DNA of 64,000 bases. It comes from Parcubacteria group bacterium Gr01-1014_30 (GTDB lineage: Bacteria; Patescibacteriota; Minisyncoccia; Minisyncoccales; 2-12-FULL-40-12). The notes beneath the pieces are model-generated. The model worked only from the letters and a program-made list of their open reading frames with translations, was not told the origin of the DNA and did not search any database. A program made the translations under genes and the position numbers. The stretch's first letter is position 1, and the number at the start of each line of letters is the position of its first letter. Of the stretch, positions 55,554-59,971 are shown in pieces. The stretch lies in NCBI GenBank assembly GCA_007376185.1, contig VMFS01000002.1, positions 2,198 through 66,197 on the forward strand, written 5' to 3'.

Positions 55554-55779
55554 GAAAATTGCGCGGATTTATTAGTACCGCTTCTCTCAACTGATTACTC
55601 AGCTTACAAGTGCGGCCTATCAACCTCATCATCTCTGAGGAATCCATAGAATCTTCATCTTGGGGTGGGCTTCGAGCTTAGATGCTTTCAGCTCTTATCC
55701 CTTCCTAACATAGCTACCCAGCAATGCTCCTGGCGGAACAGCTGGCACACCAGAGGTTAGTTCACTCCGGTCCTCTCGT

Positions 55780-56217
55780 CAAGTTAATCTTATATTTCTA
55801 TAAGCTTAGACTATATCTTCACCGAATACATAGCATTATGTGTTCGGGTCAACGTATTATGGTAGCTTTATAAACCTACCATCTATTCCAGAATTGGAAT
55901 AAGTCGTTACGGGGACAAACTATAGCTGCAAAATTTCTCTTAAATCTGGCGGAGTATCACTTCTTCTTTTCAGCTGAATCATAATACTCCCATCGCCATC
56001 TAGAAAACCAGCGATATACGCGAAATCAGTAGATTTTGCCTTGGTTTGTCTTCCCACGGTATCGCCTTAATAATTATCCGGTCCTCAAGTAAATTATACC
56101 ACACATTATTTGGACCGCAAATATACTGTGGTCATTGCAACCGGATAACTAATGAAGGTTTCACCGTTATTAGTTGAGTTGTCATCATGGATTGCTCCAT
56201 GAAGTAGCAATTTCCTT
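55780..56217 (-). mobile_element. group I intron in the sarcin-ricin loop (after the U of AGU|ACGAGAGGACC)
   Basis: The exons join to GCTCTTAGT|ACGAGAGGACCGG. Exon 1 ends in U and the intron ends in G. The intron carries GGTGAAGATATAGTCTAA (J8/7-P7-like) and CCCCGTAACGACT. Confidence 0.75.
55920..56057 (-). pseudogene. 45-codon remnant of a LAGLIDADG homing endonuclease inside the intron
   Basis: The minus-strand translation is VGRQTKAKSTDFAYIAGFLDGDGSIMIQLKRRSDTPPDLREILQL*. It has one LAGLIDADG motif and is far shorter than functional enzymes. Confidence 0.7.
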
Positions 56218-56425
56218 ACTAAGAGCAACTCCCCTCAAGATTCTAAACGCCTGCGGTAGATAGGGACCAACCTGTCTCACGACGGTTTGAACCCAGCTCA
56301 CGTACCACTTTAATTGGCGAACAGCCAAACCCTTGGGAGCTTCTCCACCCCCAGGATGTGATGAGCCGACATCGAGGTGCCGAACAGGGCCGTTGATGTG
56401 GACTCGCGGGCCCTACTAGCCTGTT

Positions 56426-56856
56426 CAATCCTTTTTTTGGATTAGACTATATCTTCACCGAGCGCGTAAATACCTTATGCGCTCGGGACGGCGTATTATG
56501 ACGGGTAATGTTCACCGCCATATCGGTCAAAAGACCTCAGTCGTTACGGGGTCAAATCTAAAATTACTTTGGCCCAATTAATCTATCTAAGTAAAACTCA
56601 TTCACTTGATATTTAATAGAATGAATTTCATTCCTAATTATTATTAATTGCCAAAGGCAAAGAAATAAAATTAAGAGAATAATTATTTTAAACCAATTTT
56701 GTTTTATGTAATTCACAATTTTAGATCGACTTCCCACGGTGTTGGAAGAACTCAAAACCTTTTAATAAAGGAAGACCAGTTCTTATTTCACCGTTATAAG
56801 CCGTACATTTCACGCATTACTGCGTGATTGGACAACAAACTCTTTTTTCAGAGTTT
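56426..56856 (-). mobile_element. group I intron at the L2449 site of the peptidyl-transferase centre
   Basis: The exons join to CCCCGGGGAT|AACAGGCTAGTAG (E. coli GGGGAU|AACAGGCUGAUA). U before and G at the end of the intron. It shares the 3' core with the other intron (CCCCGTAACGACT...ATAATACG...TCGGTGAAGATATAGTCTAA). The interior is AT-rich. Confidence 0.75.
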
Positions 56857-57418
56857 ATCCCCGGGGTAACTTTTGGCTGATGATCTTTGCCGGTCCTACC
56901 AACCAGCATCGGTTCACTAAGTTCCGCTTTCGCGACAGCTCGACATATCCGTCTCGCTGTAAAGCCGGCTTGTGCCTTTGCGCGACCAGTCCGATTTCCA
57001 TCCGGACATAGCCGACCTTATAAACGCCTCCGTTACTCTTTTGGAGGCAAGCGCCCCACTTAAACTGACCGCCACCCACTGTTTTCCTTGCGGAATTAGT
57101 CCTACCATTTTAAAAGACGGGTGTTTCATTGGCGGCTCCATTGGGTCCGAAAACCCAACTTCAAAGCCTACCCGCTACGCTACGCATCCAAAGTAATAAG
57201 ACAATGGAAAGCTACAGTAAAGCTCCCGGGGTCTTTCCGTCTAGCCGCAGGTAACCGGCATCTTTACCGGTATTGCATTTTCACCGGGCGCCTCGTTGAG
57301 ACAGTTCCCCAGTCGTTAAGCCTTTCATGCGGGACAGAACTTACCTGTCAAGGGATTACGCTACTTTAACACGGTCAGAGTTACCGCGGACGTTCACTCG
57401 TGGCTTAACTCGCTCAGC

Positions 57419-57515
57419 CCCCGCTCTCTAAGCTCTATATATTCTGTAATTACTCAGACAAACAACATAGTGTTTGCCCAAATTTCTACATTCACATACA
57501 GCATAGAGAGCGGGG
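57419..57515 (+). repeat. TIR-bounded 97-nt insertion A in 23S (helix 68 tip region)
   Basis: CCCCGCTCTCTAAGCTC...CAGCATAGAGAGCGGGG, with 12-bp terminal inverted repeats and an AT-rich interior. Confidence 0.8.
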
Positions 57516-57630
57516 ACCGGCAAGGATAACACACAAGCACTGGTCAGGCCTCAGCCCCTATACATCCTCTTACGAGTTTAGCAGGGACCTGTGTTTTAGG
57601 TAAACAGTCGCCAGGGACACTTTCGCTGCG

Positions 57631-57731
57631 CCCCGCCCTCTATGCCCGTCGTCATTTTTTTCTCACAATACTTTTTCAGTTGTAGAATTTCAAAACGAAT
57701 TAATCTATGACTACGAGCTTAGAGGGCGGGG
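57631..57731 (-). repeat. TIR-bounded 101-nt insertion B in 23S (helix 63 variable region), flipped relative to A and C
   Basis: CCCCGCCCTCTATGCCC...GAGCTTAGAGGGCGGGG. The CTATGC and CTAAGC ends are swapped compared with A and C. Confidence 0.8.
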
Positions 57732-58206
57732 AAGGCATATTGCGAACTTACGCCTGCTTTTTTGCCGAGTTCCTTAACGAGGTTTCACCCGTTCACCTTG
57801 GTCTGCTCGACCTGCCCACCTGTGTCGGTTTGCGGTACGGATTCCGCGTTTTTAACTTAGCAAGGTTTTTCTTGGAAGAATTTTCTATTAAGTTGTCTCA
57901 GACGTAACCGAAACTCCCCTTTCAGAAGAGAATCCAATAACTCTCTCAATATCCAATTCTCCGTCGCCTTGCCAAAAAAGCGCAGAAGGGCCGGAATATT
58001 AACCGGCTGTCCATCCCCTAAACCCTTTCGGGGTCGGGTTAGGCCCGCCTAACCCTTGGCTGATTGACATTGCCAAGGAAACCTCGGGCTTTCGGTGTCC
58101 AGGGATCTCACCTGGATTGTGGTTACTCATGCCAACATTCTCACTTCGCAGCGCTCCACCCCGACTCGCGTCGTGGGCTTCACTGCACTGCAAACGCTCC
58201 CCTACC

Positions 58207-58305
58207 CCCCGCCCTCTAAGCCGTATGTTCAAGGTAGCCAGAATTTATCAACTGTTAATAGTTTGATATTTCGATTACCTAAAATACACAGCATAGAGGG
58301 CGGGG
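58207..58305 (+). repeat. TIR-bounded 99-nt insertion C in 23S helix 45 (classic IVS site)
   Basis: CCCCGCCCTCTAAGCCG...CAGCATAGAGGGCGGGG replaces the helix following GCTCCCCTACC. Confidence 0.8.
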
Positions 58306-58941
58306 TCTTGTCTTCGGTACTGAGTTTTAGTCCCGTAAATCTTTGGCGCAGAACTCCTTAGTTAGTAAGCTGTTACGCACTTTTTAAAGGATAGCTGCTT
58401 CTAAGCTAACCTCCTAACTATCAGAGGTGCTCCACTTCCTTGAGTACACTTAACTCAAATTTTGGGACCTTAGACAAAGATCGTGGGCTTTTTCCCTTTT
58501 GAGCTTGGACCTTAGCGCCCAAGTTCTGACTCCCCGCAAAACGTTTGGTATTCGGAGTTTGGTAAGAGTACCTACCGTAAGGCACGATATTCTTTCCAGT
58601 GCTCTACCCCCAAACGTTATTTGTCGCGGGGGCTAGCCCTAAAGCTATTTCGGGGAGAACCAGCTATTACCAAGCTCGATTAGCTTTTCACTTCTTGCCA
58701 CAAGTCATCCGAGAGTATTGCACGGCTCACCGGTTCGGGCCTCCTCAAAGATTTCTCTTTGACTCACCCTGCTCATGGCAAGCTCGCTTGGCTTCGGGTC
58801 TTACGCGTACCACTTTTTTTCGCGCTGTTAACACTTGGTTTCCCTTTGTCTGCTCCCTAAAGGGGATTAGACAGCGGCACGCATAAAGTCGTTGGCTCAT
58901 TCTTCAATAGGCACCCCGTCGCACCTCGCTAACGCTCGGTG

Positions 58942-59134
58942 CCCCCAAATCCGAAATTCGACCACAGCCCATTTCCAATGGGCTGGGTCGCCCAGCCCTT
59001 TAGTAAGGGCTGTGGCGAAATTCGAAATCCTAAACAATATCAAAATTCAAAATCCAAATGACCAAAATTTTGTTTCTGTTTTGAATTTTGGGTTTTGGAT
59101 TTGTTTCGTATTTAGGATTTCGTGCTTCGGATTT
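58942..59134. repeat. R-family repeat copy R4 plus a GC-rich cloverleaf-like module, inserted in 23S helix 25 (classic IVS site)
   Basis: AAATCCGAAATTCG, then CCACAGCCC...GGGCTGTGG, then CGAAATTCGAAATCCTAAACAATATCAAAATTC...TTGGATTTGTTTCGTATTTAGGATTTCGTGCTTCGGATTT. Flanked by the helix-25 stem ACGCTCAGTG/CACCGAGCGT (RNA sense). Confidence 0.75.
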
Positions 59135-59670
59135 ACGAGGAACACTGAGCGTCAGCGAAATGTTCCGAGTCCTTGTGGGCATGATGGTTTCAGGTTCTAT
59201 TTCACCGGGGTCAACCCCCTACTTTTCACCTTTCCCTCACGGTACTGGTTCACTATCGGTGAGATTGAGTATTTAGCCTTTCCGCGTAGTCGCGGATGCT
59301 TCCCGCAGGGTTGTCTTTTCCCGCGGTACTAAAGAAAAATATCAAGGAGCATAAAGTCGTTTTCATCTACGGGACTATTACCCTCTATGGTTGCCCTTTC
59401 CAGGGTCATTTAATTAACGAAACTTTACCTAAGTGCTCTCCCTCAGAAGTTTTTGTCTTAAGAACAAAAGCTCCTGACAATATTTCCTTACAACCCCAAG
59501 CATAAAAATACTTGGTTTTGGCTTCTCCCTGTTCGCTCGCCGCTACTGAGGGAATAATCCTTCGACATGCTCAGGATTACCCTGAACTTGTTGAAGGGTA
59601 ACTGTGTTTTCTTTTCCTCCGCTTACTGAGATGTTTCACTTCAGCGGGTACGCCACCGCGCTCTGCAGCG

Positions 59671-59804
59671 GAAGCACGAAATCCTAAATACGAAGCACGA
59701 AACAAATCCTAAATTCAAAATTATAATGTCCAAAACGTGTTTTGAATTTTGGTCATTTGGATTTTGATACTGTTTCGAATTTCGATATTCGAGTTTCGAA
59801 TTTC
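59671..59804. repeat. R-family repeat copy R5 inserted in the 5' domain of 23S (helix 9/10 variable region)
   Basis: GAAGCACGAAATCCTAAATACGAAGCACGAAACAAATCC...TTGGTCATTTGGATTTTGATACTGTTTCGAATTTCGATATTCGAGTTTCGAATTTC. Confidence 0.75.
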
Positions 59805-59971
59805 CGGTGCAAAGCACGGCTTGCCGCGTTTTGCACGGCAGGGTTTCCCCATTCGGACATCCCCGGTTCTAAGGTTGGTAGCCACCTCCCCGAGGCTTAT
59901 CGCAGGCACCCCACGTCCTTCATCGCCTCAATCTCCCAAGGCATCCTCCATCTGCCCTTAAAAATGCAATT

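Follow-up and report, generated by a model that had tools for sequence, protein, structure and literature searches.

The 23S-5S rRNA unit and its insertions

The stretch of DNA analysed here, called the window, comprises 64,000 nt (64 kb) of contig VMFS01000002.1 of Parcubacteria group bacterium Gr01-1014_30, a member of the candidate phyla radiation (CPR), and carries on its minus strand a 23S rRNA gene followed by a 5S rRNA gene. The 23S gene is lengthened by two group I introns and by hairpins at the tips of helices 10, 25, 45, 63 and 68. The reading that we prefer, to which we give a probability of about 0.72, is that this CPR 23S-5S unit was colonised by the introns and by two families of dispersed palindromic repeats, a GC-arm family (~99 nt) and an AT-rich hairpin family (~120 nt), members of which occupy the five helix tips. 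The anatomy of the gene was built from blastn anchors to Escherichia coli rrlH, the Rfam alignment and direct reading, which give nine extra segments; a global MAFFT alignment to the E. coli 23S placed the 3' introns wrongly, and the blastn anchors were used instead. The features of the unit, in window positions, are the following:

59970..59995, minus strand: 5' arm of the 23S leader/trailer processing stem, 26 nt, 88% complementary to 55531-55556
55555..59971, minus strand: 23S rRNA gene, 4417 nt with all insertions, Rfam RF02541 (LSU_rRNA_bacteria)
59664..59810, minus strand: helix 10 insertion, 147 nt against 8 in the model, an AT-rich hairpin (core ~59671-59805) on an extended stem
59558..59606, minus strand: hairpin at E. 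coli ~226-233, 49 nt against 6 in the model
59434..59477, minus strand: extra hairpin at E. coli ~291, 44 nt, from the Rfam alignment
58925..59159, minus strand: composite insertion at helix 25, ~235 nt against 8 in E. coli
58207..58305, minus strand: GC-arm element replacing the helix 45 tip, 99 nt, U.U mismatch in rRNA sense
57631..57731, minus strand: GC-arm element replacing helix 63, 101 nt, A.A mismatch in rRNA sense
57419..57515, minus strand: GC-arm element at the helix 68 tip, 97 nt, U.U mismatch in rRNA sense
56426..56856, minus strand: group I intron after U2449 (E. coli numbering), 431 nt, no intact open reading frame (ORF)
55780..56217, minus strand: group I intron after U2656, in the sarcin-ricin loop, 438 nt
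55920..56066, minus strand: decayed homing-endonuclease ORF in the U2656 intron, 48 codons, ..YIAGFLDGDGSI..
55531..55556, minus strand: 3' arm of the 23S leader/trailer processing stem, pairs with 59970-59995
55386..55496, minus strand: 5S rRNA gene, Rfam RF00001, 76.5 bits

The 23S gene matches RF02541 over the full length of the model (positions 1-2925) with 2102.9 bits, against a threshold of 50. An earlier note on this DNA, made from the letters alone, had proposed a minus-strand 23S gene of ~4.4 kb followed by a 5S gene, and the covariance-model matches bear this out. The seven insertions that it listed are all present, they are of three kinds, and two of them are introns, as it had said; the lengths that it gave are exact for five of them (438, 431, 97, 101 and 99 nt) but too low for the other two (~193 and ~134 nt, which are ~235 and 147 nt), and two further extra segments of 49 and 44 nt had been overlooked. 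The leader/trailer stem also exists, but the 16 bp reported for it fall short of the 26 nt at 88% complementarity that are found.

All five helix-tip insertions fold as long hairpins. The copies at helices 45 and 63 have arms that are exactly CCCCGCCCTCTAWGC/GCWTAGAGGGCGGGG, and the copy at helix 68 carries one compensated change. All six GC-arm arms of the window lie at these three rRNA insertions, where 0.14 would be expected by chance, and none occurs elsewhere in the window. The GC-arm unit consists of 15-nt arms (CCCCGCCCTCTAWGC) around an AT-rich interior that is free to vary, with a W.W mismatch that is conserved. The helix 25 insertion consists of an AT-rich hairpin element (~59012-59140) and of a unique GC-rich hairpin at 58950-59022 (CCACAGCCC..GGGCUGUGG), of which no second copy is found in the window or in any fetched locus. 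Searches of the short insertions against Rfam at E<=1 return no family, only chance microRNA-like matches on the AT hairpins. At the level of the sequence, the short insertions have the features of intervening sequences (IVS), which are a location at helix tips, ends that form a long stem and a sporadic occurrence among relatives.

Two group I introns at U2449 and U2656

In silico excision of the U2449 intron restores GGGGAU joined to AACAGGCU, and excision of the U2656 intron restores AGU joined to ACGAGAGGACC, in both cases exactly the conserved sequence. Both introns have the splice sites that define group I, a U.G pair in P1 and a final G. In the U2449 intron, U56857 forms the U.G pair within AUAAACUCU/AGAGUUUGU and the terminal base is G56426, and in the U2656 intron, U56218 forms the pair within UAGUAA/UUGCUA and the terminal base is G55780. 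Against Rfam Intron_gpI, which has a gathering score of 50, the U2656 intron gives 30.7 bits (E=4.8e-5) and the U2449 intron 15.5 bits (E=0.16). The core blocks TTTGNCCCCGTAACGACT, CATAATACG and GAAGATATAGTC are common to both window introns and to the introns of loci L169 and L081.

Locus L169 (4661-5524) has a U2449 intron with 79% identity over 123 nt to the 5' part of the window intron; it scores 29.8 bits against Intron_gpI and carries an intact 210-aa LAGLIDADG_2 ORF (142.2 bits), and it is the likely full-length relative of the ORF-less U2449 window intron. A homologous intron is found at U2656 in locus L081, and the CPR site 23IS14 at position 2657, a LAGLIDADG_1 site, matches the site of the U2656 intron (PMC11270868). 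The ORF of the U2656 intron matches Pfam LAGLIDADG_1 with 18.1 bits (E=0.005), and since this score is below the cut-off of 23.1 and only profile positions 1-19 of 102 are matched, the endonuclease gene is a remnant. The U2449 intron contains no recognisable remnant of a homing endonuclease. Two related group I introns would have colonised the 23S gene, and both would have lost the homing endonuclease, of which one keeps a 48-codon stump and the other nothing.

U2449 adjoins A2451 of the peptidyl-transferase centre. The U2449 and U2656 sites are intolerant of a break, so that both introns would have to self-splice and religate the exons, and we infer that they do. Position 2449 of the large subunit (LSU) rRNA is also the site of the yeast mitochondrial omega intron. 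The window introns are like the omega/2449 and 23IS14 introns in their sites, in the U.G pair at the 5' splice site, in the terminal G and in the association with LAGLIDADG genes, but they differ from these in being ORF-less or in having a stump only, and in scoring below the Rfam threshold.

The GC-arm hairpin family

Two-arm pattern scans, which demanded exact arms and gave the fetched loci L002-L117 and L119-L238, find at least 116 GC-arm loci in species-representative genomes and at least 120 in metagenomes of the Joint Genome Institute (JGI), which makes >230 copies over both collections; the same kind of scan finds zero elements in viral contigs. The counts and distributions given in this section hold among the matches listed. 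The hosts are, as labelled, mostly Parcubacteria-type Patescibacteria (Nealson-, Staskawicz-, Taga-, Jorgensen-, Wildermuth-, Lipton-, Portnoy-, Harrison-, Brenner-, Wolfe- and Yanofskybacteria), and some metagenome-assembled genomes (MAGs) with the element belong, by record label only, to Omnitrophota, Elusimicrobia, Edwardsbacteria and Planctomycetia. Where a genome has several copies, these lie on separate contigs. About 14% of the copies lie in stable RNA genes: in 23S, where helix 63 is the most common site and helix 25 the next, in the 5' part of 16S and at two positions of RNase P RNA. The other ~86% lie outside such genes, mostly in intergenic DNA.

The elements are 96-102 nt long, with a peak at 98-101 nt, and their interior, which has 29% G+C, is mostly unrelated from copy to copy. 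The mismatch is T.T or A.A in 122 of the 123 copies of the first scan. In a second, independent scan, which left both positions free, 99 of 114 copies have A.A or T.T, ten have other mismatches, three have G.T and two have a Watson-Crick pair, so that 109 of the 114 are without a standard pair at the mismatch positions. Because the scans demanded exact arms, they account in part for the invariance that the arms appear to have; when matching is relaxed in the fetched DNA, which is a biased sample, ~60 copies with 1-4 arm changes are found against 209 exact ones.

Sixty-four copies have a TGCTC-type right flank, and in 54 of them an ORF starts 14-72 nt downstream, with a sharp peak at 16 nt and a broader one at ~45 nt. 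The genes that follow include rplK, rplT, rpsR, rpsP, rplN, rplV, rplR, rplE, efp, mraZ, mreB, metK, ssb, rpoC, ruvA and parA. A subclass of 35 copies has the arrangement stop (TGA/TAA)-GCGAAGCGAAAA-element-TGCTCAYTWCRTTCGC-ATG and is oriented with U.U in mRNA sense in 32 cases. The interior of this subclass is conserved in sequence (..GGGCAGGTAAAATATAAAATTAAATAATAAAATTTGTTCATCCTGCC..), and RNAalifold finds in it the outer stem only, with no covariation. Stop-to-ATG modules of this kind, for example L006 3006-3106 and L092 5478-5576, which precede ribosomal-protein, mraZ, mreB, efp and metK genes, show no visible Shine-Dalgarno sequence in the 16-nt leader, and their flanks contain the crossing complementary 5-mers TGAGC/GCTCA and GCGAA/TTCGC. 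Two other interpretations of the flanks were rejected. A hammerhead-like reading of the left flank (UUGAG-hairpin-CGAAAA) lacks the invariant CUGAUGA core, and a sigma-70 promoter split across the element (TTGAGC..TACGTT) has the right spacing for the shortest flank variant only, and the TGA of its TTGAGC is the stop codon of the upstream gene.

The only ORF case in ~237 copies is L101 3031-3128, in which a GC-arm element lies in frame and without a stop, adding ~33 residues to PriA past the 3'BD domain. At L010 258-359, two 5' arms are followed by two 3' arms within 100 nt in an apparently nested arrangement, which suggests that one copy was inserted into another or that the arms were duplicated.

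The AT-rich hairpin family

The AT-rich hairpins of helices 10 and 25 are mutually inverted copies of one ~120-nt element, and two intergenic copies are found in the window:

6617..6736, plus strand: AT-rich hairpin, intergenic copy, blastn 76% over 122 nt
27840..28035, minus strand: AT-rich hairpin, intergenic copy, blastn 84% over 75 nt

The copy at 6617-6736 spans exactly the distance from the stop codon of a LigT-like gene to the ATG of MurC, and the copy at 27840-28035 is flanked by an S41 peptidase gene and by rplI (L9); in mRNA sense the two copies are oriented alike. At the centre of the hairpin upstream of rplI, ~60 nt of unrelated, GC-richer sequence are nested (27921-27980), which may be another small element in the hairpin loop. 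The LigT-like gene (6044-6616) encodes a 2H phosphoesterase of the 2'-5' RNA ligase family and ends exactly where the AT-hairpin copy begins, which may or may not bear on the processing of RNA ends.

Site occupancy in related 23S genes

The nearest 23S genes come from Patescibacteria MAGs with 80-88% exon identity, which agrees with the CPR origin proposed in the earlier note, and eight of these related genes, together with the metagenome 23S gene L151, form the comparison set. The U2449 site is empty in all five of five relatives, and the U2656 site is filled in L081 alone. Helix 10 has at most ~41 nt in five relatives, and L026 has 138 nt of different sequence there. Helix 25 is occupied by 32 nt in L067, by 74-163 nt of other sequence or by a GC-arm element (L019, L028 and L081). 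At helix 45, L067 has a hairpin of 26-28 nt between near-identical flanks, and other relatives have other inserts. Helix 63 carries GC-arm elements with unrelated interiors in L067, L053, L065 and L113; in L081 it has a hairpin of 21 nt instead, and in L151 an AT-hairpin. At helix 68, no more than 21-32 nt are present in L065 and in L067. Among the compared 23S genes, the window alone has GC-arm elements at helices 45 and 68.

The site at E. coli ~226-233 has 7-27 nt in most relatives. At E. coli ~291 the relatives hold 51-83 nt, so that the 44-nt segment is lineage-typical and not an insertion, and by this sequence comparison it is the sole lineage-typical one among the extra segments. The seven insertions are not of equal length in all relatives, and nearly every site is empty or otherwise filled in them, so that the insertions are sporadic and not fixed in the lineage. 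Since the rRNA flanks are near-identical while the whole tip hairpin is swapped, the helix tips are replaced, not split.

The closest relative found is L151, whose aligned exon blocks are 86-96% identical to those of the window. It contains five AT-hairpin copies, at E. coli ~290, helix 25, helix 45, E. coli ~1350 and helix 63, and one GC-arm element at helix 25, and some of its sites hold the other family than in the window:

L151 hairpin copies (five AT-rich and one GC-arm): 1525-1612, 2190-2298, 3137-3239, 3452-3557, 3945-4070, 2410-2509

A given genome seems to have a hairpin type of its own, which recurs at many of its helix tips. A third hairpin, GAGCACATAA..TTATGTGCTC, is present at helices 25, 45 and 68 of one 23S gene, that of L067. 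It has the form (G/A)AGCACATAA-loop-TTATGTGCT(C/T), lies in L067 at 736-755, 1482-1501, 2440-2459, 2498-2514 and 6196-6215, is absent from the window and is also seen in L161, L081 (2996), L090 (7827), L157, L189 and L014, as well as in intergenic DNA.

Genomic setting of the unit

The lack of a 16S gene, noted before for ~4 kb upstream of the 23S gene, extends to the entire window, in which an Rfam scan at the gathering threshold finds no small subunit (SSU) rRNA, and the sole tRNA found by ARAGORN is tRNA-Lys at 32043. The 5S gene has a flanking stem of its own (55374-55397 with 55486-55509). The neighbours are those named previously, a protein gene upstream and mreC-mreD-mrdA downstream. 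The upstream gene (60283-61326) encodes 347 aa with Ig-like Gmad2 and Kazal protease-inhibitor domains, and the genes downstream of the 5S gene encode MreC, MreD (a weak Pfam hit) and PBP2. Further upstream, 61340-62908 encodes a 522-aa protein with about eight cysteine-rich repeats (C..EC..YC....C..FAE); both this product and that of 60283-61326 are predicted to be secreted.

Insertions are present in 82% of CPR 23S genes, with up to 16 per gene and a mean total of 1327 bp (PMC11270868), and 16S is unlinked in 27 of 34 CPR genomes (PMC8172020). The locus itself is therefore ordinary for CPR, and the earlier term 'hyper-interrupted' overstates the case, since published surveys of CPR 23S genes show that such insertions are usual (PMC11270868); this is a typical, not an exceptional, CPR 23S gene. 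A single 23S copy is usual in CPR genomes (PMC11270868), and the 23S-5S unit is probably the sole one of the genome and probably functional.

Relation to known repeat systems

The GC-arm family has the terminal inverted repeats of a miniature inverted-repeat transposable element (MITE), in the form of its 15-nt GC arms, and within the fetched loci these arms pair almost solely at a spacing of 90-105 nt, with no long pairs. As a multi-copy, intergenic hairpin of two inverted conserved repeats, it also fits REPINs, the hairpin-forming doublets of repetitive extragenic palindromic (REP) sequences, with which it shares inverted conserved arms ~70 nt apart, a hairpin of ~100 nt, multiple intergenic copies and a hairpin imperfection that could confer strand specificity (PMC3116915). 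Unlike REP sequences, the GC-arm elements have no GTAG or CGTC tag, and REP sequences are species-specific, whereas the GC arms are identical across lineages (PMC3116915). Genes for IS200-like Y1 transposases, similar to the REP-associated tyrosine transposases (RAYTs), are seen 2-3 kb from GC-arm copies in L066 (2276-2929), L120 (4850-5476) and L069 (2207-2761). Those of L066 and L120 have palindromes of another sequence than the GC arms at their flanks (TATCGTTGTCCGACAACGATA; ATATCGACATCGCAAGTCGATAT), so that a RAYT link is unsupported in this limited sample; since these Y1 genes have palindromes of their own, the genomes may host separate REP/RAYT systems.

The palindromic elements of Rickettsia offer a closer comparison. 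In R. felis there are 728 copies, 85 of them in ORFs and three in RNA genes (PMC1166351), and GC-arm copies likewise lie between genes, within the genes for 23S, 16S and RNase P RNA and, in one case, in frame in PriA. Both are palindromes of ~100 nt in reduced genomes with intergenic, stable-RNA and in-frame protein copies. The two are not related in sequence; the GC-arm element has invariant ends and a free interior, it occurs in very distant lineages and it is strongly tied to stop-to-start spacers. In the loci examined, the GC-arm family lacks the RAYT of REPINs and the duplication of MITEs, and its behaviour fits that of Rickettsia-type palindromes.

The CPR rRNA insertions described before (Tsurumaki et al. 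2024, PMC11270868; Brown et al. 2015) resemble those of the window in that several insertions occur in one 23S gene, group I introns are clustered in the 3' half, including position 2657, LAGLIDADG genes are in part degenerate or lost and short non-intron insertions lie at helices 25 and 45. In that survey the short insertions are uncharacterised and presumed to be RNase III-processed IVS, whereas here they are copies of mainly intergenic repeat families, which replace the tips of several helices of one gene. The 23S IVS of Salmonella and Leptospira and that of Coxiella helix 45 (PMC4990558) have the same helix 25/45 sites, a long end stem and a sporadic occurrence; classical IVS are confined to rRNA genes, whereas the GC-arm element is also found in 16S, RNase P RNA, spacers and one ORF. 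The earlier interpretation of the short insertions as IVS is to be modified in this sense, as they are not classical gene-specific IVS but copies of dispersed palindromic repeats that are mostly intergenic.

The literature on the arm sequence gives unrelated primer matches only. Searches on Patescibacteria repeats and CPR RNase P insertions returned no paper describing the GC-arm element, which is weak evidence, as the journal coverage is partial.

Origin and fate of the hairpins

Outside rRNA, both hairpin families mostly fill spacers between a stop codon and the next ATG, and in rRNA the hairpins would survive solely where an extra hairpin is harmless. RNase III, which is among the few ribonucleases kept across CPR (PMC12641178), would cut the long stems from the precursor, as it does with the classical IVS of helices 25 and 45, and leave a fragmented but functional 23S rRNA. 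By this analogy, excision by RNase III is on balance the fate that we expect for the hairpins. At the intergenic copies, operon transcripts would be processed by the same cleavage. A working analogy for these copies comes from the Correia elements of Neisseria and from the intercistronic hairpins in the early mRNA of phage T7, all of which are transcribed and then cleaved by RNase III; they share no sequence similarity with the copies, and the TA duplication is also missing here.

Helices 25, 45 and 63 are the sites at which the eukaryotic expansion segments ES7, ES15 and ES27 emerge, and this speaks for another fate, in which the five short insertions are kept in mature 23S rRNA as solvent-exposed extra helices and never cleaved. 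The elements continue the host helix cleanly, the extra segment at E. coli ~291 is lineage-typical, and GC-arm elements are also present in 16S and RNase P RNA, which might tolerate fragmentation less well. Retention is nevertheless possible rather than probable in our judgement, because the characterised bacterial insertions of this size at helices 25 and 45 are all excised by RNase III (PMC4990558, PMC11270868), the sporadic occupancy in close relatives points to segments without a conserved ribosomal role, and long GC-rich stems are natural substrates of double-strand RNases. Far less credible is a pseudogene or an assembly chimera with repeats wrongly joined into the rRNA gene. Repeats often break or mis-join assemblies, and an independent assembly of the same organism (L118) breaks just past the 5S gene, but the conserved 23S blocks are all present, ordered and intact, each insertion lies with precise boundaries at a helix tip or at a known intron site, and homologous insertions occur at the same sites in independent assemblies (L081, L169, L151, L067 and others).

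A different origin, which we hold to be unlikely, is that the GC-arm hairpin is not selfish DNA but an RNA or single-stranded DNA signal selected by the host and read by a conserved factor; it would be a cassette for processing or translation coupling in operon spacers that stable RNAs would have co-opted or tolerated. The 15-nt arms do not vary, and the mismatch is kept, in >230 copies from MAGs labelled as several phyla; the stop-to-ATG spacing is exact, the ATG follows after 16 nt, and the flank TGCTCAYTWCRTTCGC is conserved; one subclass has a fixed orientation (U.U in mRNA sense in 32 of 35, among the matches listed) and a conserved interior in its 35 copies; and neither a target-site duplication nor a transposase is found among the examined copies. 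Set against this, the copies in rRNA and RNase P RNA show both mismatch states about equally (U.U 14 and A.A 12, among the matches listed) and have unrelated interiors, the interior is without covariation, the in-frame copy in PriA is typical of selfish palindromes, and several copies of the same genome share interiors and lie at contig ends, as recently duplicated repeats would. The scans for exact arms also make part of the invariance built in.

Several observations weigh against colonisation of the unit by introns and dispersed palindromic repeats. The flanks of ~120 GC-arm copies contain no direct repeats that would represent a target-site duplication, no autonomous parent element is found within the fetched loci, and no cognate transposase is found for either hairpin family in the limited sample of loci. 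The replacement of whole helix tips is unexplained by simple transposition. The invariance of the arms over very distant lineages argues for a function at the level of the host over pure selfishness. Interior pairing past the 15-bp arms is weak (7.1 against 5.9 of 14, mean z-score -0.8, among the matches listed), so that many copies would be short substrates for RNase III. Both introns, with 30.7 and 15.5 bits, are under the Rfam gathering threshold of 50.

Implications

What appears to be new is that the short rRNA insertions of CPR are not specific to rRNA but are dispersed, mostly intergenic hairpin repeats, which elsewhere occupy the spacers from stop to start codon in housekeeping operons, and this offers an origin for the short non-intron insertions that surveys have left uncharacterised. 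In practical terms, these repeats break assemblies and confuse the annotation of rRNA and RNase P RNA in Patescibacteria.

A more speculative idea, to which we give little credence at present, is that the CCCCGCCCUCUAWGC stem with its obligatory W.W mismatch is a conserved signal recognised by a dedicated nuclease or binding protein in ultra-small bacteria. Arms that are unvarying in >230 copies and a mismatch that is hardly ever repaired are difficult to account for unless some factor reads the hairpin. If this were true, the element would be a modular 'cut here' or 'bind here' hairpin in operon spacers shortly before start codons, in rRNA helix tips and in RNase P RNA, and the many uncharacterised short rRNA insertions of CPR would be not junk but parts of one organised RNA-processing system, which the swapping of tips would reflect. 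If the factor were RNase III or another nuclease, the maturation of ribosomes and the processing of mRNA in these minimal cells would be shaped by one and the same signal.

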